IMG/VR virus record: IMGVR_UViG_3300018012_000099
Strand: one strand, 5' to 3'
Length of the DNA: 64,000 nucleotides
Origin: a virus
Taxonomy: Duplodnaviria > Caudoviricetes
Below, one piece after another: positions 2,772-49,346 of the stretch (positions within the stretch are counted from its first letter, which is position 1; each line of letters opens with the position of its first letter). The position numbers and the translations under genes are program-made. The notes beneath the pieces were generated by a model that did no database searches, had not been told where the DNA came from, and saw only the letters and a program-made list of their open reading frames with translations.

Positions 2772-4760
2772 ATGGTAACTTATGCTGATCCAGTTCGAGT
2801 GGGGCTATCTCGCGTAGCATCAATGGGTGATGGTTACACTATTAATATATCATGGTTTCAGGCTTATTCCACGCTTCCTTCAAACAAAATAGCTTATCAT
2901 ATTTATTATGGTACGGATAACACTAAATTAATTCCAGATTCAGAATATCCAGACATATTTTCTGAAGGTGTCAAGCTGGTGGTGATTGATGGTTCCACCG
3001 AAGTTAATGTGATTGGATTAACTCCAGGTCAGGAATACTGGTTTTGTGTGCGACCGGTAGAGTATGATCCAACCATTTTTAATTTGTCAAATTTACCTAT
3101 TGCTCATGATAACGTGCGTTTTTATCCCAGTAGCTTGCTCCGTCAAAATATGACGGCTACCGATTTGATTGTGCCACTAATGGATGTGGAAGGATTTCCC
3201 AATATGGGAGTCGTGCAAGTAGGTATAGAACTAATTTTATATTTAGCGGTAGATGCGGTCAATAACAATTTGATTGTACCGGGCGGCACCTCTCCAATTA
3301 GTGGACATTTGGTATTACAATCTAACAATCAATACTATTTGCCAAACCCTAATAATACGGGACAGGGATCTTTAGGTTCTTTGACTTTGGTAGGTGGTGA
3401 CACTAATGGCACCTACAGTATTAGGTGCATCTTTGTGCAACGAGATGGTAGTGGTAATCCCATCTCCGGCACTGCTAAATTCGTGGTTATTAGTCCCCCA
3501 CCAGGCGATCCGGTGGATGGTTATGGCAACTACCCAGTTTGGGTGGCTAACGGTCCGATAGTTTCTGATGGTATCTTGAGTTTTGGTATTGTTGAAAATG
3601 ATGGATATACTTTTGTACCGGGCGATTCTTTTACCGTCCAAGTAGCCGGAGCACAACCAGGTCTGTCCAGCGGTCGTGGCTATGATAACACTCCGATTAC
3701 CTCTCACTCGGTTAGTGGTTTCGATGGCTACAATACCTGGAATCCTTTGGTTACTGTCTTTACTTTAACCGAGTCTCGCCTTTATGATCAGATGTATGTT
3801 TGCTTATCTCGTTTTGAATATCCTAACTTTCCTTTCACTATTATTGATGGTTATAGGCAGGTACCCGTCGATTATTTGAGCACAGATTTAGCTGCCGCTG
3901 ACGCGGCTAATGTTACTTTCCCGATATACGACTATGCGGGCTATCACCGTACTGATCCGGTACAATTGCTCAATGGTACTTGCGTAGGCAGTTACATCGG
4001 TGGAGAGATGGGTTGTATCGATGCTTACGGCAACTACAACATCTATCGTGGTTTCTCACTCCAGGATCAAAATACTCAGCGTCAAGACATTTTATTGTCC
4101 GTTACGGGGCAACCAGCTGTTCTAGTACAGAGAGTGCAGACGGGAGACGTATGCAGTTGTTACCTCTCCACTAGCGAATATCCTGACGACCGTTGCCCGT
4201 TCTGCTACGGCACCAAGTTTGTCTTTGGATACACCCAATATTTCAATCCGCGTCAGTCGGACGGACGCATCATGGTGCGTTTGGGACCAACTGCTGAAAA
4301 TCTAAAAATGCATGAAGGTGGTTTGGAATCTGAGTTCCCGCTAGATATTTGGACTCTCACGGTGCCTACCATCAAGACACGTGATTTCTTGATTTTGTTC
4401 GACCAGAACGATAACGAATCCTTCCGCTACGAAGTAGGGGACGTCATTCGTAATCAGACCATTTTAGGTCAAGATGGCGGTCAGCACTTGAAGACCTTCC
4501 GTATCCGTAAGACCGATCCGGCTTATCAAGTTAGGGTGTTCCGTAACACTTCCGATTTTCCAAATACCATCAATACTTCTTTGGGTATGGCTCCTCCTGC
4601 TATTCCGCCTCATAGCCACACCATCGTAGTAAATGAAAAGGTTTTGGCGGTCAGCCAAATTAATCAGACTACCGGTATCTCACAGGGACATAATCACCCA
4701 ATTACGGATGGGGTCGTTCAAACGGTGCTCGGGCATACACATACTATTATTCTCCCCTGA
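2772..4760 (+). CDS. Virion structural protein, probable neck/head-tail connector with N-terminal FN3-like domain
   Basis: FN3-like segment VIGLTPGQEYWFCVRPV, a middle domain shared with the sheath, CSC...RCPFCYGT motif and C-terminal HSH/HNH/HTH motifs. First gene of the structural block. The neck assignment is inferred from position and motif. Confidence 0.5.
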   Translation: MVTYADPVRVGLSRVASMGDGYTINISWFQAYSTLPSNKIAYHIYYGTDNTKLIPDSEYPDIFSEGVKLVVIDGSTEVNVIGLTPGQEYWFCVRPVEYDPTIFNLSNLPIAHDNVRFYPSSLLRQNMTATDLIVPLMDVEGFPNMGVVQVGIELILYLAVDAVNNNLIVPGGTSPISGHLVLQSNNQYYLPNPNNTGQGSLGSLTLVGGDTNGTYSIRCIFVQRDGSGNPISGTAKFVVISPPPGDPVDGYGNYPVWVANGPIVSDGILSFGIVENDGYTFVPGDSFTVQVAGAQPGLSSGRGYDNTPITSHSVSGFDGYNTWNPLVTVFTLTESRLYDQMYVCLSRFEYPNFPFTIIDGYRQVPVDYLSTDLAAADAANVTFPIYDYAGYHRTDPVQLLNGTCVGSYIGGEMGCIDAYGNYNIYRGFSLQDQNTQRQDILLSVTGQPAVLVQRVQTGDVCSCYLSTSEYPDDRCPFCYGTKFVFGYTQYFNPRQSDGRIMVRLGPTAENLKMHEGGLESEFPLDIWTLTVPTIKTRDFLILFDQNDNESFRYEVGDVIRNQTILGQDGGQHLKTFRIRKTDPAYQVRVFRNTSDFPNTINTSLGMAPPAIPPHSHTIVVNEKVLAVSQINQTTGISQGHNHPITDGVVQTVLGHTHTIILP

Positions 4761-4867
4761 TCTATGCATAGCTCTGGAAACCATTTAAGCGACAACTATC
4801 AGACAAATTGGGTTGAAATATAATTCGGTCGTCAAGATTATAAAGACTAATAAAAAGCCATAACATC

Positions 4868-6766
4868 ATGACGGACAACAGACAAAAACCAGCAGTTCCA
4901 AATTATGTGCCAGACGTAGGTCGTTTGGTCACGGATAGATTTGATTTTCAACAGCATGTTAATGGTACTGGTTTCCGTCACGTGGCTAATCAAATCGATA
5001 TGTCCCCATTAATCACTATTAGTGGTGAGCAGCCCACTAATGTGCAAGACGCTATTGCTTTACTGGCTGAAGCAGCATCCCCAGTTTTAAATCCAGCAAC
5101 TACAACTACTTTAGGTATTGTTCAATTATCTGGAGATATTGCTGGAACTGCTACTAATGTTAGGGTAGTCAATATTCAGGGACGACCGATTAGTACCTTA
5201 CCGCCGTCTACGGGTCAAGTATTGACTTGGCAAAGTGGCGGATTCTGGTCCCCACAAAATGTGAATAATGGGGCGGCAGGTGGCGACTTACGAGGCACCT
5301 ATCCTAATCCATTGGTAATAGCTTTGGATGGTTACAAGTTTAAAACTCCTACTAATCCACTCAATGGGCAAGTGCCCACTTGGGTGTCTGCGGATGGTTA
5401 TATCGAATGGAATTATACTGGACAAAATGTGGTCGTCTATCAACCCGGAGGTACCGCGGGAGGTAATGTGTATACCACTTTCGCGGGTGTGTATGCTTTT
5501 GCGCAAACTTTGGGCAGTGCACCAGTCACCATTTACTTGGACTCCACTCATAGTAGCACTTTCACTGTGCCAGCCGGCACCTATACTTGGGGCAATCAGC
5601 TATTGACCATCTTGGGATCCGGGGGTCCCGGACCTCCCATGCTGCAATTGCAAGCTGGCGTGGTGTGGAACGGCATTCTCTCTATGAATGTGGTAGGAGC
5701 CCAACTGACCAATGCTTCTACTAGTAGCACTCCCATCAGTTTCTCGGATGCTCTCAATCATACCGTACAAATTTTCTCTCATAGCTTTCTCAATGTGGAA
5801 GGGGGTTGTCAACCGCTGATGACCATTACCAATACCACTTCCGGACATTTATTTATTGAGTCGGATGGAGGTACCATTGGTGGTTTACCCGGAGGCGGTG
5901 CTCCCGTCATTACTGTCACGGGAGGTGTCAGTACTTTGACGCTAGTAATTGACGCCAACGCCTCTACTATCAGCGCTTCCTGTGTGTCTGCGGCGGTGGC
6001 AGGTAATGCACAAATCGTGTATGATGCCAATTCCAGTATATCTTTGCCACAGACTAATGTCACCTTGATTTTAGATGATATCGCCGCACAGGTCTCCTAT
6101 AATGATGGCTATGTCTCTCCCACTATCGGAGCGGTGACCGTGCAAGCTGCCATTGATTATCTCAAACAACATAGTGGAAGCGGAGGTACTATCGCCGGAG
6201 ATGTCACGGGGACGTTAGGATCCTCCACCGTAGTCAAACTACGAGGAAAAAATCTCTCCACCACTTTGTCTTCTCTTGGGGCTGCCCAAGATGGATATGC
6301 CCTCACCTGGGATAACACGGATGGCTATTGGTTTGCGGAATCACCTCCCGCCTATCAATGGGCGACTAATGCCTCACCCGTTACTTTATCAGATACCGCA
6401 GCACATATCATTACTAGCGTCACTATTGTACCTACCGTGACAGGACGATTGATTGCTTCCGCCACTGGTTATGTTAATAACTTGTCGGAAGCTGATACGG
6501 TGTCTTTGGGGATGTTTTACAGTATTGGTGCAGGCAATACTACTAATATTGCTCCCATTGGACTGTATACTATTCCACCCGCCATTAGTTTTACTTTTGC
6601 CGCTACCGTGGATTTACCTTTCTATATTATTTCTAACTTCCCCATCAATGAACCATGGGTGATCAATATTTGTGCCCAAGCCGGCACTGCTAATGATATT
6701 CAGTTCCCCGCTAGTGGATGTAATCTAGAAGTGGAAGAAAACCTACAGGCTAACTTATTGCCATAA
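4868..6766 (+). CDS. Tail fibre / fibre-like virion protein
   Basis: Three GD[ILV]xGT repeats typical of fibre shafts (GDIAGTATNVRVV, GDLRGTYPNPLVI, GDVTGTLGSSTVV). Gly/Thr/Ser-rich, with 5 DGY. Confidence 0.6.
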   Translation: MTDNRQKPAVPNYVPDVGRLVTDRFDFQQHVNGTGFRHVANQIDMSPLITISGEQPTNVQDAIALLAEAASPVLNPATTTTLGIVQLSGDIAGTATNVRVVNIQGRPISTLPPSTGQVLTWQSGGFWSPQNVNNGAAGGDLRGTYPNPLVIALDGYKFKTPTNPLNGQVPTWVSADGYIEWNYTGQNVVVYQPGGTAGGNVYTTFAGVYAFAQTLGSAPVTIYLDSTHSSTFTVPAGTYTWGNQLLTILGSGGPGPPMLQLQAGVVWNGILSMNVVGAQLTNASTSSTPISFSDALNHTVQIFSHSFLNVEGGCQPLMTITNTTSGHLFIESDGGTIGGLPGGGAPVITVTGGVSTLTLVIDANASTISASCVSAAVAGNAQIVYDANSSISLPQTNVTLILDDIAAQVSYNDGYVSPTIGAVTVQAAIDYLKQHSGSGGTIAGDVTGTLGSSTVVKLRGKNLSTTLSSLGAAQDGYALTWDNTDGYWFAESPPAYQWATNASPVTLSDTAAHIITSVTIVPTVTGRLIASATGYVNNLSEADTVSLGMFYSIGAGNTTNIAPIGLYTIPPAISFTFAATVDLPFYIISNFPINEPWVINICAQAGTANDIQFPASGCNLEVEENLQANLLP

Positions 6767-6772
6767 TAAAAA

Positions 6773-6934: not shown

Positions 6935-7020
6935 TTCTACTCCTAATATTTCGAGAAAAATATATAGGGCATCATAATTCGTAATATATTACTTATTTCG
7001 TATGTCTTGAAGGAGTTATC

Positions 7021-7503: not shown

Positions 7504-7571
7504 TTCGGAAGTGCATTATATCGTATATTACGTAGAAATCATGCAACCATACGATATACGAAGAGAGAATA

Positions 7572-10500
7572 ATGAGTAATTTTCCTCAGAACTTTGACGA
7601 TGATACAACTTTACCAGTTGTTAATGATAATCTAACAGAAATTGGTGGCGACGCCATTAATGCTTTGCGAGATGCTGTCTTTAACATCGAGATGAATATT
7701 GGTTTGGGTGCCGCAGGAACTACTCCATCTATCGCAGCCCGTTTGGGTTTGCTTATTAATCCGGATGGAACTCCTAATGCTTCTGCTATTACTAGTTTAG
7801 GTTTGGTAACTTTACCAATTACTCAAGATCAAATTATTGATAACGCCCAAATTCCAGAATCCAAATTGCGTTTGGATTATCGTACCCAGGATCTCTTTAA
7901 TTATATCAGAGATCTGTCTAGGGATGTAAATCTAGCTTTAGGATGGATATCCGTTAGTGGTGTCAAGTTAGAACCTCATCTTATAGGGGCTATTTATCGT
8001 CATGATTTGTCTCAGATCGACGTAGCGGAAAATTCTAGCCAGTTTTTAAACAATGTTTTTAGAACCCAGCGTGATAACGCTAATTCCTATACGCTAATTA
8101 ACGATATGAATAGTGAGTTGTTGGCTCATCAATGGGCGGACGGCTCTCCATTTGGTATATTGCGTAACATTATCACAAATGATGGTTCCATTTATCCTTC
8201 TTATTATGCACATGTGGCTAGTGGTATATTTCTGAATACCAGTAGATTTAATACTATTCCACAAACGGCGCAAGACCTTCAATCGTTTGCCCAGTTTATT
8301 GATGAAGCTAGCATTTTCTTGTTAGGTACTAGAATACAAAACCTATACGCTAATGGTATTTCTAGAACTTCCACTTCTTCTAGCCTTACTACTGATGGTT
8401 ATGGACAACCAATTATCCCTCCAACACCAGCTACTGCCTTCTTAAGATTTCCATCGGGAAATAATAGTGCGCCAGTAGATGACATTGATCATGGAGATGA
8501 TATCATACAATTTTTTCCGGCTGCCGCGGACATAAGTTCTAATTCTTTTGATGAAAAGTTTGCTTTAGTTCAAGTGGGCGATATTATCAGAATAAATTAT
8601 GGAACCGTTGAGGTTCAGTTTGTCATTTTAGAAAAGAAATACACTCACGGAACCTATGCTATAAGAATAGCTGGCAAAAATTTAGCCTATACAACCACCG
8701 CGGTTGCTAGAATTGATAGACCATTATTTAATACGAATAAATATGGTGTATTGGCTTTAGCTGCCGCTAATAGCAGTTTTAATAGCTCCAATATTCCAAC
8801 CAGTTTAATTGTGGGTGCCCCCCGCGGAGCCCAAACTTTGGGTATAGGATTTAATCCAGATCAATTTGATAGTCAACATTATCTGTTGTATTTGGCCTTG
8901 TATCCAACAGGATCTCCACAAGATGGTTATACTATATTACCAGCTATTGATGTGACTGGTAATCAAGGTGCTACACCGGGATTTTACACTTTAGATTCTA
9001 TAGTCCAATCTACCAATCTAGCTTTTAGGCAGCCTGGTTACAATTATAGGTTTATTGCCTTTTCCTACCAGGGTGAATTTGGCATTATGTTAGCTGATTC
9101 TTATAATAACGCCTCTTTCTCTATTATAAGTGGCGTTGTTCTTCCTAACGGAACCGGTTATGACCCTACTGGAACGGGTATTAATTTTCCACACAATGTG
9201 ATAGATGTATTTTCTACCAATCATGATCCATTGGGTTTTGGTGCATTAGGCTCTAACGTCGCCTCTCCGCCATTTACATCTTCTTTTGCTTCGGTTGCAG
9301 CCTCACAATTTGTTACTCGTATTTTAGTACCACTAAGAAGAAATAATTACTATGTAGATGGTGTAGAAAAAGAAAAACTCAACCTACAGATAGGACAAGC
9401 TCTTGATCAATATGGTGACGGCTATTGGGTTGCGTCTATTGATGGATATCAGTCTGTTTCTGGACATGTTCAAACTACATATTTAGTTCCGCTGGATTTA
9501 TCTACTTCTGATCTAAAAATAGGAAAAACGCTAGTTGTTCAATCCTTGGGATCGGGTAGTTTGGTAGATTTTGGTAGATTTGTAATTAGTGGAATTAATT
9601 TCAATTGTTCTACTAGTCCAGCCACTGCTATTACAGTATACGATGCGGTGCATGCGACAGGTACCTTTCCGGCTCCCACCCTAGCTAGTAGTCCAGATGG
9701 CTATGGTAAACCAGTTGCCTTATATTTTAATTCTGATTCCGTGGCTTTTGATCAAGAGTCAGCCACCGATATTACCATACCATCACCTAACGGTCCTTTT
9801 AAGAGATTCTTTGAAATTTATGTGGATGAAAATGGTAACACTTTTACTCACGAACGAGCCAGATTAAACAACAGCGGAAGTGTGATTACGGTTAATCCAA
9901 CTACTGGTAGCTCTGTTCCTTTGTATAATTCCTCTTCTTCATTATCTTTCATCAATATTTATGATATTTCTCCAAAACTTAGAGGATACAATTTTGGCAT
10001 AACCAAAATTAATTTGCGACTCTTTTCATATGATGCTACCACCGGCTTATTTGATGGATACTTATGTCAATTTGACGGTACAACCGTTACTCATGCCGGA
10101 CCCATTATCGTTGGACAAAAAGGATTAATTTCTAGATTTTATGATGCAACAAATGTAGATTACATCGATTTTATCTTTAATCCTGGTGACACTATATCAT
10201 CTTTTACTACTCCACAATCGGTAGATATACAATTATTTCCATCTTTGAGTTTAGATGGTCAAATTATGCAGTTGGGCACTTGTCAATTTAATACTGTAAA
10301 TTATCAAGTATCTTATCTGAATGATAAAAGACAATTTGGAAATATTAGTGAAGAACAGCTATCTACTTCAGCTATTGATTTTATTCAATCGTCTGATAGA
10401 GAGTTATGTGATAATGGAATTATTAGAGGATTTGATGCTTTGGATGCTAATGGAAATCCAACCATTCAAATTAATATTGCAGGAGGCACTATTAATTTTA

Positions 10501-13382: not shown

Positions 13383-13383
13383 T

Positions 13384-17885: not shown

Positions 17886-17981
17886 TCTATATAATTAGAT
17901 CAATATACTCCCTAATATTGACTAACGATGTCTCCTATTGTGTTATATACAGTAGGAGATATTGCTTTTGTGGAGAAAATA

Positions 17982-19045: not shown

Positions 19046-19056
19046 CGAGATACTAA

Positions 19057-21303: not shown

Positions 21304-21315
21304 TAGAGAGTAGTT

Positions 21316-22215: not shown

Positions 22216-22256
22216 AAGTACATTTGAAATGTATTGGATAAGGATAGGAAAAAGTA

Positions 22257-27263: not shown

Positions 27264-27265
27264 AT

Positions 27266-33537: not shown

Positions 33538-33572
33538 CCCTAATATTCCGACATTATGGTGTGGAGAACTAG

Positions 33573-38128: not shown

Positions 38129-41100
38129 CGACCACCAATCTTCGAATCGTTAATGTACAGGTTATTAGCAGCACAGAGATTCAAGCTACTTTCACCGAAA
38201 ATCTGACACCTAATCTCACCACAGCTAACGTTTCCATTATCTCTACCACCAATGATATACCTAATTCAGAGGTGTTATCTGTCAGTGTATCCGCTGCTAT
38301 CCTTACTGTTTCTTGTCAGCCGTTGACCCCATTTGCTACTTATTATATCAAATTTGTCTCTACACCACAACATCTTTTCGAATCAATCAATGGTGATGCG
38401 GTAATTTTGCAGGATGGTGTTTCTAATCAATTTTTGATTACCGGACCTATTGATCCAGATAATCCAGTAAAAGATTATCTGGTTAATTTTTTCAATGGCA
38501 ATATCTACGATACTGATGTTGAAACTTCTGTTATTTCACAGTATATTAATTCTCTTGCTATTAATTTGGCTCGTGCTTTACACGATATTCGACAAATACA
38601 AAATGAGAATTATCTCTCTTTCACCGTAGTGGACGAACAGCAATTTAGAAGCGAGGGACCGTACGATAGATTGTATGAAGAAGGTGCTTATGAAGTATTA
38701 CGTGTTGGATTAGGACCAACCGATGCTCAAGCTACTATTACTCTGACTTTCGATGATTTTCCGAGTTTTCCAGTTACCCTACAGCAGCAAGAGAATGTAG
38801 AAACACCCACCGTTTCTTCTAGTAATCAGGCTGGAACTTTTAATATTGATACTTTGACATTTAACTTGAATAACTCGCCTGTTACTCAGGTAACTAATAT
38901 TGTATTCACTTTAGGAACTGCTAATCCCATTTACACTTACAATATTGAGTTACTAGGATATCAGATCAACAACTCTAGATACGACCAGAATTTCGCTTCT
39001 AGCTATGCTACTTTAAGTACTAATCAGGTTAGATTAAATACTCAGATTCTGAATGATCCATTGTTTGATATTAATCAAATCATCCACATTCAAATTAACT
39101 ACCAAAGCAAAGATTTAGGTCGTGTCATTAGTGCTAGTAATATTGATATTTTTACGACACTCACTTCTATTAGGGAAGTATTGCCGCCAATTGAAAATGT
39201 TTTTACTCTTCAACATGCTCCGATTACTGATAGCAGTAACAACATCCCGCTACTTGGCGGTGTGCTTTTCTTAGATCCCAACTCTAATACTGGGTCTCTG
39301 CATCCTGCCTTTCTAGTAGAAATTCCATTTCGTCTTAGTGCGCTTCCATATGCTCCAGGGCAATACTCTATTGATTATACTACTGGCACCGTTTACGTCT
39401 ATGGCGCTACTTTGGAAAATGATGGTACCGGACCTTCGCCACCGCTGGCAACTTACGATTATCGTTTTACTTATGTTTCCGAAACGGATTATGTCTACGA
39501 TGTAGACCTGTTGGATTTAGTAGCTTTGCCATTGGGCAATCTAATCAAAAATGCTGGTGTAATTACTTTACTATATGAAGAAGTATTAATTCCGGATACT
39601 GACTATGTCGCTGATACCCATATTGAGTCCTTGACGGAGCGCGTACAAAACCGTTTAGTAGCTTTGAATTCGGTGACGACACTCAACTCTCCTATCACTA
39701 ACGTTTTCCAAATTTTCAATGAAACTTCCGGCGAAATCTATACACTAGATCGTTGGACTCGTAATAACCAAATATATTTTCAGTACACCACTCCTCCACG
39801 CGTTCTGCAACAAGTAGGAGAAAGGGCTACTTTCCAAACAGTCTCTAATGAATTGTTGTTTATTAATAGTATTTCTACCAATACTAATTCGGTTAGAGTA
39901 TTCACTATCTTCCTAGCTAATAACACCATTGTAGATGGTACAGAAGATGGTACTGGTTCCTCAATCAACTCCAGTATGAGTTTCAGTAATGGCAATATTT
40001 TTGTGGTCGAGAGATGGTATAATCAAGAGTTTAATGCCACTTTCAACTTTAATAGATTATCTAATCCAGGTGAATACACGGTGGATTATGTTAACGGCAT
40101 AATATATCTGGCTGTTTCCGCTACACAAAGCAATAACGTGGGTGCAGTTACTTATAAGATGGATGTCATTGATCCAAATTTTCCACACGTTTTAAGTGTA
40201 GATGATATTTACTACCGCGTAAGCCCACTAGCTCCTAAGAACAAGCAGTTTGCTTATCTCAGCTTTGGTGATAGTCACATCATTCCAGACAAGCCGGATC
40301 CTTCTGATGAGGCTTTCCTTAATGGTTTCGTGGGTGCACCTTATCAGCTATTCAATAATCAAGTAGGAACTTTTGTCAGCAGCAGTTTCTTACCTGGCGT
40401 GACCAATCAAGTTAAGTTTGTTAGGGGCGTGTTTGAATACCAAGACTTATTGAATAATACTAATCCGATCAATTTTGCTTCTGCTAGTGTTGGTGGCAAT
40501 TTTAATATTACTGTCAATAGTCTAATGGGTCAAGCGTTCGATTCGGTCCAATTTGACGGCACACATTACTATGTTTTGTTCAATCAAAATATTCCATACC
40601 TATCTACAGATATTTTATTTGACTTTACTATCACTAGAGTGTCTGATGGCTATTCTCTGTGGGACGCTACACATGTCGGCACTATCGTTTCTGGTGATCC
40701 AGTTAAACTTGTACTGACTGGTTTTAATTCCCCACATACGGGAGATTTAGTTAGTGTCACTTACTCTTTCACTATTCTGCCACTATCTCGCGTGATTGTC
40801 GATTACAATAAGGGAGATTACTTTGTCGACTATACTTACTTGGCTGATGAATTAATTATTAGTTATGAGTATGGTGACAACGTAATCGATTTCCGTCAAA
40901 GTAACAAAGTAAGCCCTGGTACACCATATTATGTCACTTATCGTGCCGGTGCTCTCAGGGACGCTTTAGTCAAGAACTTCGGTTCTTTAGTTAACTTGCC
41001 AGAATTAGCTTCTCTGGACGTTAATTTCCCACGTGAAAGATATCGCGATGCCCTGATGGCAGCCCTCTCCTCCTTCTTACAAGGACCTACGGTTGCAGCC

Positions 41101-44100
41101 ATCAAAAACATTGGTCAGATTATTTCTCACACGGAGCCACAAGTCATCGAATCTGCTTTTCAAACCTGGTCTTTGGGTCAAGGTTTGTTATTCCCACAAT
41201 CTATTGATACTACTGGAGCCTTCCAGCTCTTACCGGCCCACTTTGGTAACGGTGTGTTGGTAAATCAACCTAATCAAACTATTACTATGCCGGCTAACTC
41301 TAATATCAGGTTGGAAGAGGGCACTTTCGAACAATGGATTGTTCCACAATGGGATGGTTTGGATAATGATGCTGCTCTAACTTTTAATATTACTAGAGAT
41401 GGATATCCTATTAATCCTTATCGTGTTTTCATTGGGGCTTCAGAATATCATCCAATCATTACCAACAGCACTTTTATTCTAACTAAAGAATCTAACGTTA
41501 CCGGTCTACCTAACACCAACAAGGACGGTGTCTTTATTTGGTATGGTAAAGATATTTCTGGAAATTTCAATCGATGGTATCTAGAAATTATTGACGGGTA
41601 CGTTCAACCAGTAGCTCCGGTTTACAAAATCAAGATTACCTCGACAGGTAAATTCTACGACGCTAAAGCATTCAACCTACCATCCCCGTCCAATGCCGTT
41701 ATCTTTACTGGATTAAGCGCCTTGAACGTGACCATCACGACAAATGGCACTCCTATTGAAGAGGGTGTTACCTTTCTGTCTGATGTGGAACATTACTTTC
41801 TAGACGTAGGACGTAAGAAAGATCGTAGTCGTTTGTCTGTTTTCAAGGATGCCAGTGGATATATGAATTTCCGAACCTGGGATAACACAGGTATTATGTA
41901 CTCCATCAGTGCTGATGTGTCTTCTTGGAAAGCTGGGCAAGTTCACCAGATAGCTGCTTCTTGGAAACTAAGCACCCGCAATGAAAGAGATGAAATGCAT
42001 CTCTTCTTGGATGGATTAGAAGTTCCAAATATCATCAAGTATAGTCAAAAACTACAGCCATATTTACATGAGAAGTTTAGAACTATCAATCCAGAAGAAA
42101 TTGCAGGATTATCTAATAGGGATATCGTTGGATCGGATGATTTGACCACGATTGCCGGCACTAATAGCGTTAGCTCTAGCATTAACTTTAGCCAATTCAA
42201 TATTTTCTTAGGTGATACCATTATTATCAATGAAATAGGTTTCTCCTCTATTGGTTATCAAATTGCTAGTATCAATGGTCAAACGCTTACCCTTAATGGA
42301 ATCATGCCACTATCATTGAAGGGAGACGGTAGATTCTCGATTAATGAGACTTCTTTCTTAATCACCTCCGATATCAATGTAGCCCCCAACACTACTGTTA
42401 GTACCATTCACACCTTCGTGACCGGTAATGATCTGATTACTACCATGAATTCTAACGTAGTTACTTCACCAGGCACTAATTTCACTACTAAAGGAGTACA
42501 GCCTGGTTATCTTTTAAGGATAGATAGTAACTCTCCAGTATTGGTTTATAGTATAGTACAAGTTTCTGGTCATTCGTTGACTATTACCGATCCTTTTCCT
42601 GTCAACCAAACTAATATCAATTTCCAAGTTTACTCTAATACCGAAAATGAGCTACCAGGCGTTCGTGCCCTTCACCCAGATTATGCCATCAGCGAAAATA
42701 GTAGTTTCCAGAATGTACTAACTATCTTTAATGGTATTTTTGCTAATGATTTGATTTTAGTTAGAACTCTAGGTCTCAATCATCGAGATATTAAGAAGCA
42801 GTACTATATTTGGAGCACTCAAAAAGAAAATATCATTATGACTCAGCTTCCCCCTCCTATTTCTTTGGATGAGGCCGATGTCACTAAGATCATTACTCCA
42901 GTCACAGCTATCGGTCCCAACAACTCTACTTTAGTGGGAGGAGTTTTCCACTCCAACTTAATACCTACTGCTCATCCAACTAACGCTCAGGTTGGAAGAA
43001 CCATTCAGGTTACTATCGCCGGTACTAACACTGATTTCTCTACTCCAGTTCAAGTGCTGCTAAATGGTGTGGTCGGAATCAATATTGTCACTGAAACCGT
43101 CACTTTTACTAACTATGGTACTTTAGATTTTGCCAACGGTTTTACCTCCTTGAATTGGGTAATGGTAATAGCTAAACCAATTAATTCCGCTAAAGCCGCT
43201 CTAACCGTAGAGTTAAGAGAAAAGTATCCAATGACCCATAGTGAGTTTAGTGGTTTAGCCCCAGTAATTAGGTATAGCTATCACATCACTGGAGGCTATA
43301 CTCTGTACGCCGACGGATATGACCAATGGGTAACAGACGGCTATAATCTATTTAGCGATTTAGATATCGGTAACTACTTGGTCATCCACTCTCCTGCGGT
43401 AGTGGATGGATATTCTGTTGCAGGATTCTATATCATTACTGGTCTATCAGTCGATAGACACTCTATTAGTATTAGACCAACCTATGCTTCTGGTCCCGTT
43501 CCTCTCCCTCCATTTACCGGAGGTGTTTATGAGGTGCTAGACACCACCCAATATCGTAGTGGTTTGCAGAATGGATTCTTTACCTTCGAAGTTGGGTTGT
43601 TGCCAGGCGAAGCTTTCTTCCTTAGTACGGGCTTCTATGAATTTGATTACTCCACCTATGCCAGAATCAAATTTGATCCACTCAATGTACCAATCTATTT
43701 TGGTAGCGATATGTTTGGTGGCAATCAAGCTAATTCTATCTTAGATCAAACCATTTTATATTCAGTTATGTTAACTGATACGAGAGTTGGTGAAGTGGTA
43801 GCTGCCAATCAGCGTTCTATTACCAAGGATTATAACTCTCTCATTCCAATTACTTCAAACCAACAGACCTTGGTACTAATTACTTTCGATAACTTTCCAT
43901 TCACTAACAGTGCTCTAGTATATGTCAATACCGATACCGATAGAATTCATTTTCAGTCCAACTGGGCAGTCAATGATAATTTCAATCAAAGTATAGTTAT
44001 TTTAGATAAGCCTATTTTGGTTCCTAATACAGGTATCTTGGATACTCGTAAGCAAGGAACTGTCGAATTCTGGATCAGTCCTCTATTCGACACGGCTAAT

Positions 44101-45300
44101 GATCCTAATCCACGTTTTTACTTTGATGCTTACGGGGCGGTGGTAGAACAAGCGGTTAGTAATACGGATGTTACGGTCAAGATCGCTGCGCCTGCCAGCC
44201 AAATCTTAAGCGTCAAGTTAGCAGCCGGTGACCCTAACGTAGATTACTTCGCTGGTGGAAAATTAGAAATTGATACTCAACATGCTATCCAAGAAGGAGG
44301 TATCAGCATCGGTACCTCTTCAGTCAAAACTTCTGAGCCCATTTTACAAGTTATAACTGTAAAAATTGTGGATGATTTTACTGGTACCGATTACTTTGCT
44401 AATGGTTCTATTGGCACTGATGGTCAAACTATTTATTTAGGGAAAACTCTACCACTTCCAAATGTTTCAGTTATTATTACTTATCAACCAGCTATTAATG
44501 GTCGTGTTGCTCTCAATACTCAGATAATCAGACTCAATCGTCGACTACCAAATCAAAACTCTCACGTTATTGTCAATTACATTCCACAGGGACTGCAAGG
44601 AGACCGCATCTCCATCTACAAGGATACGTCCGGCTATATCAATTTTAGTATTACTGCCTCGGGTACTAACTTTGTAGTGCGTGCTCCTACTTATTGGGCT
44701 AAGAACACCTGGCATCGTGTTAAGGCTAGTTACAAGATTAATGGTGGTTTCGGACAGGACGAAATGCGTCTATTCTTAGATGGCTATCAATATACTAATG
44801 TGCTCTTTGGTCAAGGATTAGTCTTTGGTAAATTTCCAATGGTGATGGGTTCCGTTTCTGTGGGAGATGGTTATAGTTTGACTGGTAATATCATTTTTAA
44901 GGATCCGATTAATGATTTATTTATCGGTAGCCAGTATGACCAGCGATTTCCTGCCTTTTCTTTGTTGGATAATTTTAGAATTAGCAACATTTCCAGACCA
45001 GTTTTTGCACCATATGGAGAGCCAATTGATGTCAATTGGAGTAGTAACCTAAATACCGTCATCCCAGTTACCCCAGACCTATACACTACCTATTTATTGA
45101 ATTATGATGATATGGTTGTGAAAGGGTCGAATTTTGCAGTTCTTACCGATAGAACAGTAGGATCTTTTGATTTTACAGTTAATATTTTTGATTCATTTGG
45201 TATAGTTAGTAGTAGTGCGAAAGTAAAACAAACTTTGGAAGCTTTAATCAATACTTTAAAGCCCGCTAATACTGTGGCATTTATCCAGTATTATACTTGA
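38125..45300 (+). CDS. Giant baseplate wedge protein (gp7/gpI-like) with Ig-like and LamG/concanavalin-like domains
   Basis: ERYRDALMAALSSFLQGPTVAAIK. LamG-like EGTFEQWIVP...HQIAASW...MHLFLDG and QGTVEFWISP...WHRVKASY...MRLFLDG...LDNFRIS. C-terminal LINTLKPANT. Contains 8 DGY. Confidence 0.65.
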   Translation: MTTTNLRIVNVQVISSTEIQATFTENLTPNLTTANVSIISTTNDIPNSEVLSVSVSAAILTVSCQPLTPFATYYIKFVSTPQHLFESINGDAVILQDGVSNQFLITGPIDPDNPVKDYLVNFFNGNIYDTDVETSVISQYINSLAINLARALHDIRQIQNENYLSFTVVDEQQFRSEGPYDRLYEEGAYEVLRVGLGPTDAQATITLTFDDFPSFPVTLQQQENVETPTVSSSNQAGTFNIDTLTFNLNNSPVTQVTNIVFTLGTANPIYTYNIELLGYQINNSRYDQNFASSYATLSTNQVRLNTQILNDPLFDINQIIHIQINYQSKDLGRVISASNIDIFTTLTSIREVLPPIENVFTLQHAPITDSSNNIPLLGGVLFLDPNSNTGSLHPAFLVEIPFRLSALPYAPGQYSIDYTTGTVYVYGATLENDGTGPSPPLATYDYRFTYVSETDYVYDVDLLDLVALPLGNLIKNAGVITLLYEEVLIPDTDYVADTHIESLTERVQNRLVALNSVTTLNSPITNVFQIFNETSGEIYTLDRWTRNNQIYFQYTTPPRVLQQVGERATFQTVSNELLFINSISTNTNSVRVFTIFLANNTIVDGTEDGTGSSINSSMSFSNGNIFVVERWYNQEFNATFNFNRLSNPGEYTVDYVNGIIYLAVSATQSNNVGAVTYKMDVIDPNFPHVLSVDDIYYRVSPLAPKNKQFAYLSFGDSHIIPDKPDPSDEAFLNGFVGAPYQLFNNQVGTFVSSSFLPGVTNQVKFVRGVFEYQDLLNNTNPINFASASVGGNFNITVNSLMGQAFDSVQFDGTHYYVLFNQNIPYLSTDILFDFTITRVSDGYSLWDATHVGTIVSGDPVKLVLTGFNSPHTGDLVSVTYSFTILPLSRVIVDYNKGDYFVDYTYLADELIISYEYGDNVIDFRQSNKVSPGTPYYVTYRAGALRDALVKNFGSLVNLPELASLDVNFPRERYRDALMAALSSFLQGPTVAAIKNIGQIISHTEPQVIESAFQTWSLGQGLLFPQSIDTTGAFQLLPAHFGNGVLVNQPNQTITMPANSNIRLEEGTFEQWIVPQWDGLDNDAALTFNITRDGYPINPYRVFIGASEYHPIITNSTFILTKESNVTGLPNTNKDGVFIWYGKDISGNFNRWYLEIIDGYVQPVAPVYKIKITSTGKFYDAKAFNLPSPSNAVIFTGLSALNVTITTNGTPIEEGVTFLSDVEHYFLDVGRKKDRSRLSVFKDASGYMNFRTWDNTGIMYSISADVSSWKAGQVHQIAASWKLSTRNERDEMHLFLDGLEVPNIIKYSQKLQPYLHEKFRTINPEEIAGLSNRDIVGSDDLTTIAGTNSVSSSINFSQFNIFLGDTIIINEIGFSSIGYQIASINGQTLTLNGIMPLSLKGDGRFSINETSFLITSDINVAPNTTVSTIHTFVTGNDLITTMNSNVVTSPGTNFTTKGVQPGYLLRIDSNSPVLVYSIVQVSGHSLTITDPFPVNQTNINFQVYSNTENELPGVRALHPDYAISENSSFQNVLTIFNGIFANDLILVRTLGLNHRDIKKQYYIWSTQKENIIMTQLPPPISLDEADVTKIITPVTAIGPNNSTLVGGVFHSNLIPTAHPTNAQVGRTIQVTIAGTNTDFSTPVQVLLNGVVGINIVTETVTFTNYGTLDFANGFTSLNWVMVIAKPINSAKAALTVELREKYPMTHSEFSGLAPVIRYSYHITGGYTLYADGYDQWVTDGYNLFSDLDIGNYLVIHSPAVVDGYSVAGFYIITGLSVDRHSISIRPTYASGPVPLPPFTGGVYEVLDTTQYRSGLQNGFFTFEVGLLPGEAFFLSTGFYEFDYSTYARIKFDPLNVPIYFGSDMFGGNQANSILDQTILYSVMLTDTRVGEVVAANQRSITKDYNSLIPITSNQQTLVLITFDNFPFTNSALVYVNTDTDRIHFQSNWAVNDNFNQSIVILDKPILVPNTGILDTRKQGTVEFWISPLFDTANDPNPRFYFDAYGAVVEQAVSNTDVTVKIAAPASQILSVKLAAGDPNVDYFAGGKLEIDTQHAIQEGGISIGTSSVKTSEPILQVITVKIVDDFTGTDYFANGSIGTDGQTIYLGKTLPLPNVSVIITYQPAINGRVALNTQIIRLNRRLPNQNSHVIVNYIPQGLQGDRISIYKDTSGYINFSITASGTNFVVRAPTYWAKNTWHRVKASYKINGGFGQDEMRLFLDGYQYTNVLFGQGLVFGKFPMVMGSVSVGDGYSLTGNIIFKDPINDLFIGSQYDQRFPAFSLLDNFRISNISRPVFAPYGEPIDVNWSSNLNTVIPVTPDLYTTYLLNYDDMVVKGSNFAVLTDRTVGSFDFTVNIFDSFGIVSSSAKVKQTLEALINTLKPANTVAFIQYYT

Positions 45301-45308
45301 GAGAAATT

Positions 45309-48300
45309 ATGACTAAACGCAGCCCGGTATCCGCCCCAAAACCCATATGGTACGATAGTCAACAGGTTGATGAGACCGATCTAACCACACAACAGATAGC
45401 TGACGCTACTGTGGAATCATCTATTCTCAATAATCATATAGGGACAGGGGTTTTGCCAGAAACCCTGATTCCGCATGTCTTATTCGATTCCAATCTAGTT
45501 GCCGGATTTTTGGATGGATTGGCTATTCAATCTCAGTCTCAACCTAGTGACAATAATTTAGGTAATCAACTTTCACTCTCTTTGACTAAATCTGACGCAT
45601 CTGTTTATCGCAATGTTAAGGTGGGTATTATTGGTTTAGATTTTCAGAGCAATTTACAATACGAAACTTTCGTTTTCAAAACCAACGAAGTGCAAGTAAG
45701 TCAACATCATTTTACTAAGATTTTGGTGTTATTGTTCAATGATTTGAAGGGAGATCCCACGCGCTCCTTCAACTTGGGTGGGGATTTAGTAATTTCAGAG
45801 GCTCGTCCCATGCAACTCTCTAGAGAGTCTATTATGATCTCTCAGGCTGTGGAGCCTAATCTATTTTTTAGGGATTTTTTTATTGATCCTTCTTTAGGTC
45901 CTATCTCACTACAAGCTATGTTGCAAGCAGCCTTGCCGTTCTACAATGTTAGTAGTTTAAATATTAAGACTCAGCCACTAGATAACCTAGTTATTTCTAG
46001 TGGAGATGTCACCACTCAAATTGGTCAAAAGTTTCAAGCTTCTACTAATAATATTCAAAAAATTACTCTATTACTTTCAGTTAGAAATTTAGTTGCAGGA
46101 CAACAGAATAATTTAATATGGAATGGTGATTTAATTGTTAGTATTTTTCCACTACAAACTACTATTAACTGTGCTACCGATTTAGCCCCAGGTTTACCAA
46201 TTAATTTCTCACCATCTAGTATTCCGGTTGCTCAAATCAGTTTCAACTACGGAAGTTTACAGGCTTCTGGTGTAATTTTAGATTCCATTCCACAACCAGT
46301 AGATTTTATTTTTAGTAACACACCAGCCGCCGTAGGTAATCTTATTCAATCGGGTAATTATTATTGCATAGCCGTTAAACGTGCTGGTAATGCCAATCAA
46401 TGTGATATTCTGATCGCTATCGGAGGAGATGATATTTCTAATTCTAATGCTGCTACTTTTACTGGAGATCTATGGGTTGATTTACCAGGTGAGGATTTAT
46501 GGTTCCGTATTTGGACCGACGCCTCCAAAGTGGCTGATGGTCAGGCTTATGATACTGGTAATGGTGTAACTATTCCAAAAACTATTACCGATCCATCTAG
46601 TCAAGCCACCATAGATTATACTTTTGGACCACAACCATTCGTGGGTAATGATACTTTCAGGGCTGTTTTGGCTGCCATTAATGTAGAAAGTGATCCGGTA
46701 CCTGATGCCAGGACAGGCGAACCAGTAGAGTCTAGACAACAGCTAGAACCACAAGTAACTTTAATGGGCACAGTAGATATTACTAACCTAGAATCTACTA
46801 CTGAGCCTTTAATTTTGGGAACTATTTCTGATAAAAATATCAAGACTTTTCAAACCAGCAACATAGTTATTAATTCAAAGCTGTATACTGCTACTATGGC
46901 TAACAATACTATGTTAATTAGAATAGTAGATGATCCAACTGATGTAGTTAGATTTGATACTTCAGTTTCAGCTCTAGCTACAGAATTACTTAATGGTAAT
47001 TTAGTTGGAGCCAGCATCGCCCCAGATGGAAATAATCCATCTATTACTTATCGTGTTGCTACTGCTAGACTGTGCTCTATGTTAGTAGGAGATGTAGATG
47101 GTAATGGAATTATTGATGAGAATGATTTAAATCTTCTTAATAGCTATCTCGGCTATAATATGAACATTGCGCCACCTCAACAAACTATCATTAATACTAC
47201 CGGTATGTCGTTGGGTAGCACCACTACATTTATCAATGGTTACGAAACCCTTATTCAACCATTTGCTAATTTATTTTCTGTACAATTCCAGTTGGTAGAT
47301 CCTAACACTAATTTGGTAGTGGCGGATGGATATGATGGCGTTTTGATTGCTAATCCAGCTAATCCAAGACTAGCACAATTTACCAGTGCCAGTGTAGCTT
47401 TTAATACTATAGTCGGTTTAACCTCTTACAAACTGGTCATTCTAACCAACACTAATCAAGCTGATCATGGTGGTTTTAATATTATCTCTCTGGATTCTAC
47501 TGCCGATGTTTTGACTATTCAGAAGGTTTTCCTTACTGAAGATAATCTTGGTCAATTACTCAGAGCAGATATTGATGGCGACTTTGTTATTACTTTTATT
47601 GATGGCTACTTATTAGAAAGTTATATTCAACGTTTGCCATTATCGCACTCTCCGGTTAGTACTTATCCCGCCCCCAGCACTAATCCATATACTAAAATTG
47701 GCACTAGATTTAATGTCATTGAATTAGAATTAGAACAATTCATTGATCGTACGGATGATTATACTGCCAATCCAGCTACTCGATCAAGCAGCGTCCACCC
47801 ATTACCAGATATCTTTTTGGATGATGGATACTTTGCGGGCCACGATTTCTATCATTTTCCGGTTCCAATTATTTTTATAGAGCAACTTACTTGGGATGAT
47901 TCTCTAATTATCACTGATTCTATGCCTAAATTAGTGCCTAGCGTCTTCACTTCTCTCACTGGTTTTAATGTTTCATCCTGTCTCATCAATGGCATTCAGT
48001 GCAATGTGTATCCAGTAACACAGCCTTTTGATCCTGGTACCATTGATTATTTTGTTCCTAATAATCTTATCATCGGAACTGGTGATCTACAACGTCCAGA
48101 TGGGGAATTCTATAAAGTGGACTTTGAAATTGGAACCATCGTTTTGGAAATTCCAGATGGTCTCTTTGGCTCTGAACGTACTATTGATATTTTCAATGAT
48201 TTTATGGTAGACGTAACGGGTAACGGTGCCACTAAGCTTGGCTTTCCATCTATGAGGTTCGCTGACTGTTCTTTCGTAGGTCCTAATGCTCTGGCAAATG

Positions 48301-49346
48301 ATCAGGTTCGATTCTCAGTAGCTGTACAGTCATTCTCTCCTAATGTAGATGGTTATAGCGATGATGGTTACTATGGAGCTATTGTAGATGGTAAGATGGG
48401 TGTCAGCATCGATTATACTACTGGTTTGCTCACTTTAAATTTTAGCAATCTATATCAAGATCCAGTACTACAAACTCTTAGCACTAAGATTCAAATTAAT
48501 GTCTTCTTAAAGAAAGGTGGATTTAACAACCAAACTTTGTTTGTGGATTCCACAAAAGTCCAGAATATGCTAGGTATGATTAGTGTTTTCAGTGGGGCTA
48601 ATGATGGTGGTCCATCCGCTCTAGTAGATTTGGGTTTCGATGTTACGGGTATCCTACCTATCTTGCATGGTGGCACCGGGCTCAATGCAGTTGGTGCGGT
48701 CGGCACAGTGTTGACTAGTACTGGTAGTGGTTTAAGTTATCAATTTATTGCGGACTTGGCTGGATTCATTCCGTTCTCCGTAGGTATGGCTAGTGCGGAT
48801 CAAGTACCAAAGACAGATGGTTATGGATTCTTGGATCCAAGTTTTTATTACAAGAACCCAGTGTACATATACGGGGTAGCTGGTACTTTTTCTAATGACA
48901 GTAGTACTCCTGTTACAATTGGAGCGTTGACTTTTAGATTTGATACTTTTATTCTAGAAGGTTGGTCTACATTTGAGTTAGAGGTAATTCTAGAAACTAC
49001 TAATGCATCTGATACGGCTAGAGTGCAATTATACAATGTTAATACGCACACTTATTTGAATTTAGCTACGGGTCCAAGTCAATACTTAACTACTACTAAT
49101 ACATTTGCTACTTTGGTAAGATCGATAGATTTGAGTTCTCAGCTATCTAGTGGTCAAACAGACTTCGTATACGAAGTTCATCTTAGTTTAAGTCCAACCA
49201 GCGGTACTGATGTAGCTATCTGCAAGATGGCTCGACTGGTTATCACTTATAATAATTTGACTTTGAACGGTTCGGCGCAGATTGCTCCTCCAGTTTCTCA
49301 TAGCTATAATTTCGTACCGTTCTTGCCTACCCCTACTCCAGCCTAA
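45309..49346 (+). CDS. Large tail/baseplate-attached fibre-like protein with EF-hand/dockerin-like loops
   Basis: N-terminal IWYDSQQVDETDL, loops GDVDGNGIIDENDL and ADIDGDFVITFID, fibre motif ILPILHGGTG and 6 DGY. ATG 45309 is preferred as start. Confidence 0.55.
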   Translation: MTKRSPVSAPKPIWYDSQQVDETDLTTQQIADATVESSILNNHIGTGVLPETLIPHVLFDSNLVAGFLDGLAIQSQSQPSDNNLGNQLSLSLTKSDASVYRNVKVGIIGLDFQSNLQYETFVFKTNEVQVSQHHFTKILVLLFNDLKGDPTRSFNLGGDLVISEARPMQLSRESIMISQAVEPNLFFRDFFIDPSLGPISLQAMLQAALPFYNVSSLNIKTQPLDNLVISSGDVTTQIGQKFQASTNNIQKITLLLSVRNLVAGQQNNLIWNGDLIVSIFPLQTTINCATDLAPGLPINFSPSSIPVAQISFNYGSLQASGVILDSIPQPVDFIFSNTPAAVGNLIQSGNYYCIAVKRAGNANQCDILIAIGGDDISNSNAATFTGDLWVDLPGEDLWFRIWTDASKVADGQAYDTGNGVTIPKTITDPSSQATIDYTFGPQPFVGNDTFRAVLAAINVESDPVPDARTGEPVESRQQLEPQVTLMGTVDITNLESTTEPLILGTISDKNIKTFQTSNIVINSKLYTATMANNTMLIRIVDDPTDVVRFDTSVSALATELLNGNLVGASIAPDGNNPSITYRVATARLCSMLVGDVDGNGIIDENDLNLLNSYLGYNMNIAPPQQTIINTTGMSLGSTTTFINGYETLIQPFANLFSVQFQLVDPNTNLVVADGYDGVLIANPANPRLAQFTSASVAFNTIVGLTSYKLVILTNTNQADHGGFNIISLDSTADVLTIQKVFLTEDNLGQLLRADIDGDFVITFIDGYLLESYIQRLPLSHSPVSTYPAPSTNPYTKIGTRFNVIELELEQFIDRTDDYTANPATRSSSVHPLPDIFLDDGYFAGHDFYHFPVPIIFIEQLTWDDSLIITDSMPKLVPSVFTSLTGFNVSSCLINGIQCNVYPVTQPFDPGTIDYFVPNNLIIGTGDLQRPDGEFYKVDFEIGTIVLEIPDGLFGSERTIDIFNDFMVDVTGNGATKLGFPSMRFADCSFVGPNALANDQVRFSVAVQSFSPNVDGYSDDGYYGAIVDGKMGVSIDYTTGLLTLNFSNLYQDPVLQTLSTKIQINVFLKKGGFNNQTLFVDSTKVQNMLGMISVFSGANDGGPSALVDLGFDVTGILPILHGGTGLNAVGAVGTVLTSTGSGLSYQFIADLAGFIPFSVGMASADQVPKTDGYGFLDPSFYYKNPVYIYGVAGTFSNDSSTPVTIGALTFRFDTFILEGWSTFELEVILETTNASDTARVQLYNVNTHTYLNLATGPSQYLTTTNTFATLVRSIDLSSQLSSGQTDFVYEVHLSLSPTSGTDVAICKMARLVITYNNLTLNGSAQIAPPVSHSYNFVPFLPTPTPA

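Follow-up and report, generated by a model that had tools for sequence, protein, structure and literature searches.

Short linear sequons are recognized by several protein glycosylation systems, for example, N-X-S/T, D/E-X-N-X-S/T in Campylobacter and D-S/T-A/I/L/V/M/T in Bacteroidota, the last with Asp in first position. In mycobacteriophages, capsid and tail-tube subunits are glycosylated by phage-encoded glycosyltransferases (GTs), with the glycans at the C termini, according to the summary of Freeman 2023 given in PMC12619734. The S-layer glycoproteins of Paenibacillus alvei (SpaA) and Thermoanaerobacter carry stable beta-Glc/Gal-to-Tyr linkages, rhamnose adaptors and 2-O-/3-O-methyl caps (PMC2943079). 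Here we describe a 64,000-nucleotide (nt) stretch from an uncultured huge phage of wetland metagenomes (IMG/VR record IMGVR_UViG_3300018012_000099; hereafter the window), which comprises a tail, baseplate and fibre module followed on its 3' side by genes for a tubulin, helicases and a GH25 lysozyme. The tripeptide Asp-Gly-Tyr (DGY) is strongly over-represented in the outer virion proteins encoded by this module, and a cassette of sugar genes lies directly behind the last of them. We propose, with a probability of about 40%, that DGY is recognized in trans, most likely as a sequon for Tyr-O-glycosylation that would be started by a GT4-family glycosyltransferase (GT4) of the cassette.

The nine outer virion proteins of the window contain 40 DGY in 10,275 amino acids (aa). 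Composition-preserving shuffles of each protein gave 1.77 +/- 1.33 DGY, with a maximum of 7 in 3000 shuffles. For the window as a whole, 3.2 DGY are expected from composition (Poisson p 1e-29) and 8.4 from a dipeptide Markov model (p 3e-15), as compared to the 40 observed. DGY is the sole outlier among all 8000 tripeptides, and the second most over-represented tripeptide in the open reading frames (ORFs) of the window is DPR (10 versus 1.9 expected, p 3e-5). An initial annotation, made from the DNA sequence alone, had counted 40 sites gene by gene and had noted that 45% of the outer DG dipeptides are followed by Y. The counts were reproduced exactly, the proportion came to 40/89 on recount with 0/44 for the remaining DG of the window, and the enrichment withstood the composition-matched shuffling that had been named beforehand as a check.

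The excess concerns the complete tripeptide. DG is followed by Y 40 times, by F 3 times and never by W, GY is preceded by D 40 times, by N 6 times and by E 5 times, and the residue between D and Y is G in 40 cases and any other residue in 4 or fewer. Since NGY, DGF and DGW are not raised, these counts argue against plain turn propensity or aromatic packing and point to a need for both a carboxylate and a phenolic hydroxyl. At the DNA level, GAYGGNTAY occurs 40 times in frame versus a single time in each of three alternative frame/strand combinations, and the codons at DGY sites follow the ordinary usage of the same genes. A strict in-frame excess with ordinary synonymous codons indicates selection at the protein level on the whole tripeptide, as had been suggested from the variable codons, and rules out a motif or repeat of the DNA itself. 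Residues flanking DGY show a strand-like hydrophobic bias and no extended consensus. Because of this lack of a flank consensus, together with the non-equivalent positions and the mostly lineage-specific occurrence of the sites, one repeated domain with a conserved DGY was also rejected as the source of the excess.

Inner virion proteins, encoded at 17214..29661 and 31840-34004, have no DGY among 23 DG over 4804 aa, although the rate of the outer proteins predicts 18.7 (P ~8e-9), and the remaining, non-structural proteins of the window have none among 21 DG (outer 40/89 versus inner 0/23 and other 0/21, Fisher 1e-5). The structural genes are the following.

2772..4760, + strand: neck/adaptor-like protein, 662 aa, with an N-terminal FN3-like part; 5 DGY, at residues 20, 249, 277, 318 and 359.
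4868..6766, + strand: tail-fibre-like protein, 632 aa, with a weak DUF5907 fibre repeat; 5 DGY among 6 DG, including the pair DGYALTWDNTDGY.
7572..13382, + strand: large beta-helix-type virion protein, 1936 aa; 7 DGY among 15 DG.
13384..14208, + strand: tail completion/terminator-like protein, 274 aa; 1 DGY.
14350..17187, + strand: tail sheath, 945 aa, with the Pfam sheath C-terminal domain; 2 DGY, at residues 209 and 418.
17214..29661, + strand: inner tail set of tube, chaperones, tape measure, a 299-aa protein, a 1668-aa hub, a 680-aa spike and a 118-aa protein; 0 DGY.
29681..31840, + strand: baseplate protein, 719 aa; 2 DGY.
31840..34004, + strand: 565-aa baseplate protein and 143-aa gp25-like protein; 0 DGY in either.
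34025..38128, + strand: Baseplate J-like protein, 1367 aa (Pfam Baseplate_J, E 3e-19); 4 DGY.
38125..45300, + strand: baseplate wedge giant protein, 2391 aa; 8 DGY among 18 DG.
45297..49346, + strand: distal fibre-like protein, 1349 aa, the last structural gene ahead of the sugar genes; 6 DGY among 16 DG.

Sites were mapped on AlphaFold2 models of the neck-like protein and the sheath, in which 6 of 7 are predicted to lie in loops or hairpin turns. The remaining one, sheath residue 418, is placed within a long strand. In the neck-like model (predicted local distance difference test score of 81), all five DGY fall in inter-strand loops, and Foldseek matches were the necks of phages 812, lambda, Chi and FCWL1 as well as FN3 domains. 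The sheath model superimposed onto the sheaths of phage 812 (Z 31.6 over 324 residues) and pyocin R2 (Z 28.8). It contains the conserved sheath core fold, which makes up about 320 of the 945 residues, and the variable DGY sites reside in additions of about 600 residues. Site 209 is a lineage-specific gain in a loop, and site 418 is universal. The neck-like protein and the sheath have in common a domain of about 106 aa (window 3270-3770 and 14770-15200; 46% identity, E 2e-27), which, as judged from this similarity, is an outer decoration domain exchanged or duplicated between the two tail proteins. Within this domain, DGY occupies non-equivalent positions (VDGYGN versus VDANGN, and VANGPIV versus IADGYVV), just as the initial annotation had described.

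Comparison among homologues indicates that most DGY sites are lineage-specific and that their gain requires two or three changes, with few intermediates seen. In an alignment of 120 sheath homologues, site 418 is DGY in 119, and elsewhere LGS or LGT was replaced by DGY in 25 sheaths and NGQ by DGY. Among 21 baseplate J orthologues, one site is DGY in 18, and others alternate between DGK, DGL and DGY or changed from TGF to DGY. In the wedge protein of one relative, G042, DGY stands in place of DPL, PGE, NQV or NST. Old sites common to clades are found at column 665 of the neck and at columns 869, 1132 and 1138 of the fibre. The independent gain of sites at non-homologous positions, proposed earlier from the window alone, is thereby borne out by the baseplate J, sheath and cross-clade alignments, which show independent loss as well.

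DGY enrichment is a lineage trait and not peculiar to the window genome. The relatives compared are IMG/VR contigs of up to 480 kilobases (kb), 26 of which were found via baseplate J and 1 via the sheath. They contain 277 DGY versus 25.5 expected (10.9x), and 28% of all their DG are part of DGY. Two whole genomes contain 72 DGY versus 14.9 expected (G002) and 82 versus 20.8 (G001), with the surplus residing mainly in the tail module, additional fibre clusters and Kelch-like proteins. The genes for these Kelch-like beta-propellers (G002, L050:14267-15484, - strand; G001, 98306-99553) sit far from the tail module, and all DG of their products are DGY (5/5 and 6/6, respectively). A second DGY-rich clade, comprising P0197, L223-L231 and G042, is deeply separated (neck ~30% identical) and enriched 24x. 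In L074 of this clade, 19 of 27 DG are DGY, and the 97-kb contig of G042 has 69 DGY versus 5.6 expected, none of them in the tube, tape measure protein, hub, spike or 31 kb of replication genes. The confinement of the motif to outward-facing virion proteins, claimed at the outset for the window, accordingly applies to G042 also.

Enrichment is weak in a group that we term clade-b (G006-G010 and others), with 77 DGY versus 30.7 expected (2.5x, p 2e-12; range 2.5-5x) and 13 versus 3.4 expected in each tail module. A strong alternative tripeptide was sought in the tail modules of clade-b and none was found, FSG and SGT being marginal. Distant neck homologues from 37 loci are at chance level (24 DGY versus 23.3, 1.0x). 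The same eight orthologous outer-tail proteins were then compared between lineages, including one designated P0143.

Window: 35 DGY versus 1.7 expected.
G002: 35 DGY versus 1.7 expected.
G042: 40 DGY versus 1.7 expected.
G007 (clade-b): 13 DGY versus 2.5 expected.
P0143 lineage: 3 DGY versus 2.1 expected.

The contrast extends to single proteins. The beta-helix protein has DGY at 11 of 18 DG in G002 and 0 of 7 in the P0143 lineage, the wedge giant at 15 of 29 in G042, 6 of 38 in G007 and 1 of 5 in the P0143 lineage, and the distal fibre orthologue of the P0143 lineage (1726 aa) at 0 of 9.

Concatenation of seven tail proteins (5866 ungapped columns) gave a tree that joins the window, G001 and G002 in a clade with the P0143 lineage as its sister (support 100/100), and places G042 and clade-b on the opposite side. 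As DGY-rich clades are found on both sides of the tree, the ancestor was DGY-rich and the loss of the motif in the P0143 lineage is secondary. Where the sites shared by the other clades are ancestral, this lineage has NGY, DNL, TAF or a gap. A neck-domain tree had nested P0143 inside the window clade, an arrangement overruled by the sheath identities and the concatenated tree. The otherwise DGY-stripped genome of this lineage encodes a 1117-aa fibre-like protein (L239:13386-16739) with 4 DGY among 9 DG, which may be a recent acquisition from a DGY-rich phage. Its tail module is rearranged (L057/L237/L238; JGI contig, 95-125 kb), the hub-spike and J-wedge-fibre blocks being inverted relative to neck, sheath and tape measure. 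Searches of IMG/VR for larger contigs of the P0143 and P0175 lineages returned fragments only.

The sugar cassette begins 22 nt behind the last DGY-rich gene of the window and has the order GT4-methyltransferase-GT2-(Fpg)-unknown-GT2-RmlB, given as GT4-MTase-GT2...GT2-RmlB in the initial annotation.

49368..50495, + strand: GT4-family glycosyltransferase (GT-B, retaining-type), 375 aa, 22 nt after the fibre gene; PHROG glycosyltransferase.
50511..51227, + strand: S-adenosylmethionine (SAM)-dependent methyltransferase; Pfam Methyltransf_23/11.
51220..51942, + strand: GT2 glycosyltransferase (GT2a) with weak similarity to rhamnosyltransferases.
51902-52726, + strand: Fpg/Nei-type DNA glycosylase, complete with H2TH, N- and C-terminal domains, overlapping its neighbours in the cassette.
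52702..53742, + strand: protein of 346 aa (unk346); membrane helix at the N terminus, Gln-rich stretch, Pro-rich linker, and a C-terminal domain rich in beta structure.
53742..54569, + strand: second GT2 glycosyltransferase (GT2b); Pfam match.
54566..55540, + strand: RmlB-like dTDP-glucose 4,6-dehydratase; NCBIfam TIGR01181 at 346 bits (cut-off 365) and Pfam matches.
55567..56928, + strand: TubZ/PhuZ-like tubulin (Pfam Tubulin, TubZ-like_C), directly 3' of the sugar cassette.

GT4 matches Glyco_transf_4 (PF13439, 37 bits) and Glycos_transf_1 (PF00534, 26.5 bits), both above the Pfam cut-offs, and a PDB sequence search with it retrieved GT-B domains of the glycogen-synthase type. The ORFs of the cassette abut or overlap, and terminator-like sites are no more frequent than in shuffles (9 versus 8.6); the 22 nt that separate GT4 from the fibre gene contain no such site. 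Pfam and NCBIfam scans of the cassette proteins identified no flippase, transporter, priming transferase, ligase or oligosaccharyltransferase (OTase), and among the six cassette proteins other than the Fpg/Nei protein only unk346 has a membrane helix. The lack of a flippase or ligase, and of membrane helices except in unk346, fits a cytoplasmic target. No match to unk346 was obtained in Pfam, PHROG, NCBIfam or PDB, and the Atlas gave viral hypothetical proteins only. No equivalent of the Fpg/Nei gene exists in G002, G007 or G010 or at the P0143 locus, so that it looks like a recent insertion. Between the tubulin and GH25 lysozyme genes, the window also contains a GIY-YIG/NUMOD3 homing-endonuclease gene (58109-58681, + strand) with no counterpart at this position in G002.

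Across lineages, GT4, and not the cassette for a methylated deoxysugar, is the common denominator of the DGY-rich clades. Its syntenic position after the fibre gene is conserved in the window clade (41-66% identity), clade-b (31-35%) and G042 (31%), and GT4 is the only sugar gene common to all DGY-enriched clades. Synteny of a cassette behind the fibre gene is kept in G001-G004, clade-b and G042, and its contents differ. In clade-b, GT4 is followed by three or four further GT4-type enzymes, NeuB, a CMP-transferase, a KdsA-like enzyme and DegT; the larger glycan cassette of G007 in this clade (82-94 kb, L169:2255-14303) has four or five GT4-type enzymes and an inserted LAGLIDADG endonuclease gene. 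In G042, GT4 is followed by two GNAT acetyltransferases, two unknown proteins and an SDR epimerase, and there is neither a GT2 nor a methyltransferase gene. A search for methyltransferase homologues gave none in G007, G010 and G042 or at the P0143 locus. For the P0143 lineage, we read JGI contig Ga0486075_000049 from 76 to 153 kb (77 kb of a 170-kb contig). Its locus consists of the 45297-like fibre, an unk346-like gene, an RmlB-like gene and a helicase, and it lacks GT4, the methyltransferase, GT2a, GT2b, the tubulin, the GH25 lysozyme and the GIY-YIG gene; tblastn searches for GT genes over the 77 kb read found none.

These comparisons bear on the initial proposal, in which DGY was the acceptor sequon for a methylated deoxysugar glycan. 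The sequon itself is plausible and has gained comparative support, as the P0143 lineage has lost both DGY and, at the syntenic locus, the GTs, and a relative without GT genes at this locus is not equally enriched (3 DGY versus 2.1 expected in the P0143 lineage, as opposed to 35 in the window). The named cassette is not the common factor, given that G042 is enriched 24x without GT2 or methyltransferase genes and that unk346 and RmlB persist in P0143, and a methylated deoxysugar would at most be a local version of the glycan. The genes unk346 and GT2b are each present in 9/9 window-clade genomes and in 0/15 others, GT2b being absent between unk346 and RmlB in the P0143 lineage. They were rejected as a DGY-specific pair because neither gene occurs in the DGY-rich G042, and because unk346 is retained by the DGY-poor P0143 lineage. 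We also discounted the absence of GT4 from 16/16 distant records, since the tubulin is equally absent from them and such phages are too different for the comparison.

A strict three-residue requirement with no excess of NGY, DGF or DGW, gains by double substitution, restriction to outer proteins and erasure throughout a lineage are together hard to explain by protein fold and argue for a motif read in trans. Motif statistics, outer-protein restriction, site turnover, lineage distribution and gene synteny are observed directly. From these we infer GT4 as the reader, Tyr as the acceptor and the attachment of a glycan. In our model, selection would place DGY, and keep replacing it, on outward loops and turns of the neck, the sheath insertion domains, the outer baseplate and the fibres, where it would be read by a trans factor that some huge-phage lineages possess and others have lost. 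The most likely reader would be the small GT4, whose gene immediately follows that of the last fibre and probably shares a transcript with the late tail operon. This enzyme may recognize the Asp-Gly-Tyr turn on tail proteins that have folded, or are still folding, in the cytoplasm and transfer a first sugar onto the Tyr hydroxyl, a role for Tyr with which its strictness after DG (F 3, W 0) is consistent. Extension and tailoring would fall to genes that differ by lineage: two GT2 enzymes, the methyltransferase and RmlB in the window; the GNATs and the epimerase in G042; and additional GT4 and nonulosonic-acid or Kdo-type genes in clade-b. The outcome would be a glycan coat over the tail exterior. 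Only tentatively do we extend this model to an undescribed cytoplasmic system in which GT4 reads a strict DGY on surface turns and starts a Tyr-O-glycan that interchangeable genes diversify, with sequons that evolve fast and decay upon loss of the enzyme. No mention of a phage DGY motif came up in a literature search and, to our knowledge, neither a DGY sequon nor any cytoplasmic Tyr sequon has been described.

Several points weigh against glycosylation by GT4. The modification of Tyr is something that we purely infer. The association between GT and DGY consists of one clear loss (P0143), one weakening in which GT4 is kept (clade-b) and one uninformative absence among very distant phages; clade-b has GT4 plus several paralogues, yet its enrichment is only 2.5-5x. 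The presence and absence of the tubulin follow the same pattern as GT4, the GH25 lysozyme and GIY-YIG genes are missing at the P0143 locus as well, and as 77 kb of the 170-kb contig were covered, the GT genes could sit elsewhere in that genome. In G002, where DGY is abundant, the GT4 gene (L040; G002 165166-166292, - strand) is split into overlapping ORFs of 291 and 94 aa, for which a frameshift or faulty assembly may be the cause. The enzyme is of a generic GT-B type, without a feature marking a protein acceptor, and collagen-like fibres, phage DNA or the host envelope are plausible other targets of the GTs. Collagen-like fibre proteins of G002 are rich in G-x-T triplets. A Fpg/Nei gene lies within the cassette, and DNA glycosylation is known in phages (PMC12619734). 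As a bitopic membrane protein, unk346 points to the host envelope as a target. Finally, sheath site 418, in a beta-strand and kept in the DGY-poor lineage, indicates that some DGY are simply structural. Near its head and neck genes, G002 further encodes a 1141-aa GT2-methyltransferase-GT4 fusion (234363-237788, - strand; L043:14363-17788), with a second RmlB-like gene beside it and collagen-like fibres nearby; GPQ, TGP and xTG triplets are strongly over-represented genome-wide.

Among other explanations, it is conceivable, if unlikely, that DGY acts as a non-covalent docking motif, its Asp/Tyr turn being bound by a trans factor. This could be a glycan made by the phage, a protein that decorates or cements the virion, a polymer on the host surface (through weak multivalent adhesion) or the TubZ/PhuZ-like tubulin system, which could position tails during assembly. 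Lineage gain and loss, strictness and outer restriction fit docking as well as they fit a sequon. DGY sites often form close pairs, with gaps of 5, 8, 8 and 10 residues, as expected for multivalent binding, but a three-residue epitope with no flank consensus and in hundreds of structural contexts would make a poor protein-binding site. Were the partner a sugar, stacking should allow Trp or Phe, contrary to the residue counts after DG. The tubulin (40-81% identity across the window clade, clade-b and G042) is distributed exactly as GT4, including its absence from the P0143 locus and from the 16 distant records; however, we know of no precedent for tubulin cargo signals on 40 surface loops per protein set. 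The Kelch-like proteins of G002 and G001 could be partners or additional carriers, and no candidate decoration protein tracks DGY.

We consider it unlikely that DGY marks some other covalent modification made by an unrecognized phage or host enzyme, with the GT cassette serving a different target. Candidates would be Tyr phosphorylation, sulfation, nucleotidylation, ADP-ribosylation or oxidation to 3,4-dihydroxyphenylalanine (DOPA), or a modification of Asp. The link between the GTs and the tail proteins is drawn from sequence data and is not a chemical one, and the hosts of the lineages may differ, so that a host enzyme would produce the same pattern. Room for an additional phage enzyme exists among the 137 G002 genes that are common to G001, absent from clade-b and mostly unannotated. 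A scan of the 20 larger G002 proteins specific to the DGY-rich clade nevertheless detected no kinase, sulfotransferase, Fic or ART domain and no Tyr-directed enzyme family, and its only modification-type enzymes were one further glycosyltransferase and one methyltransferase. That DGY was lost together with the GTs at an otherwise conserved locus also speaks for the cassette rather than for such an enzyme.

An intrinsic structural role, in which an Asp-Gly turn and a strand-initiating Tyr would need no reader and lineage differences would reflect drift or stability demands, is improbable. DG is a common turn dipeptide, the sites lie in loops and hairpin turns flanked by hydrophobic strand residues, and site 418 of the sheath, retained in the DGY-poor lineage, is structural. 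But Asn-Gly is the better turn former, and NGY (6 occurrences) shows no excess, nor do Phe and Trp substitute for Tyr. Moreover, homologous domains of the same fold carry DGY at different positions, orthologues of the same fold differ between lineages (35-40 sites in some, 3 in another), each gain takes two simultaneous changes, and the homologous tail proteins of distant phages are exactly at chance. Spontaneous Asp-Gly chemistry, with succinimide and isoaspartate formation tuned by Tyr as a virion ageing clock or conformational trigger, is very improbable: although Asp-Gly is the sequence most prone to isomerisation and the cassette includes a SAM methyltransferase, the latter is of the generic Methyltransf_23/11 and not the isoaspartyl (PCMT) family, G042 is DGY-rich without it, we know of no reason for Tyr, and Tyr only, after Asp-Gly, and the link to GT genes is left unexplained.

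If DGY is indeed a sequon for Tyr glycosylation, phage virion glycosylation would gain its first defined sequon, and Tyr its first in the cytoplasm. Glycosylated virion proteins, and the exposed faces of uncharacterized structural proteins, would then be predictable from sequence in thousands of uncultured huge-phage genomes, and three residues together with a 375-aa GT would constitute a compact tag-enzyme pair of possible use in glycoengineering. Tail glycan coats bear on adsorption, on stability in sediment, and on recognition by defence systems or grazers. Should the reader prove not to be a GT, the 20-40 fold excess of this tripeptide, its gain by double substitution and its erasure from one sister lineage would still make for an unusually clean natural signal of recognition in trans.

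With regard to known systems, the proposed Tyr-O-glycosylation resembles that of mycobacteriophages in the location of phage GT genes beside structural genes and in a proposed cytoplasmic glycan coat on virion proteins before assembly. It differs in that the candidate sites are internal DGY turns on the neck, sheath insertions, baseplate and fibres with none in the tube, in Tyr as the putative acceptor, and in being known from sequence alone. As in S-layer Tyr O-glycosylation, the window cassette combines RmlB, a rhamnosyltransferase-like GT2 and a methyltransferase, and the GT2-methyltransferase-GT4 fusion of G002 resembles the trifunctional WsaE of S-layer glycan synthesis. S-layer glycans, however, depend on a lipid carrier, export and a membrane OTase of the WsaB/WsfB type, whereas the cassette has no priming enzyme, transporter or OTase, and no DGY consensus has been described for S-layer Tyr sites. 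Cytoplasmic GTs with a protein Tyr hydroxyl as the acceptor have counterparts in glycogenin, Photorhabdus PaTox and Yersinia Afp18. Those are GT8 or toxin-type GT-A enzymes acting on one defined Tyr, in contrast to a GT-B enzyme of family GT4 with hundreds of candidate sites; the cassette GTs match GT4 (GT-B) and GT2 only, with no GT44/toxin-type or GT8 catalytic domain. The known short sequons are extracytoplasmic and directed to Asn, Ser or Thr, whereas DGY would be directed to Tyr in the cytoplasm, with Gly fixed. What DGY has in common with them is a linear motif of three residues enriched on exposed proteins, with positions that turn over while their density is kept, and that may decay without the enzyme.

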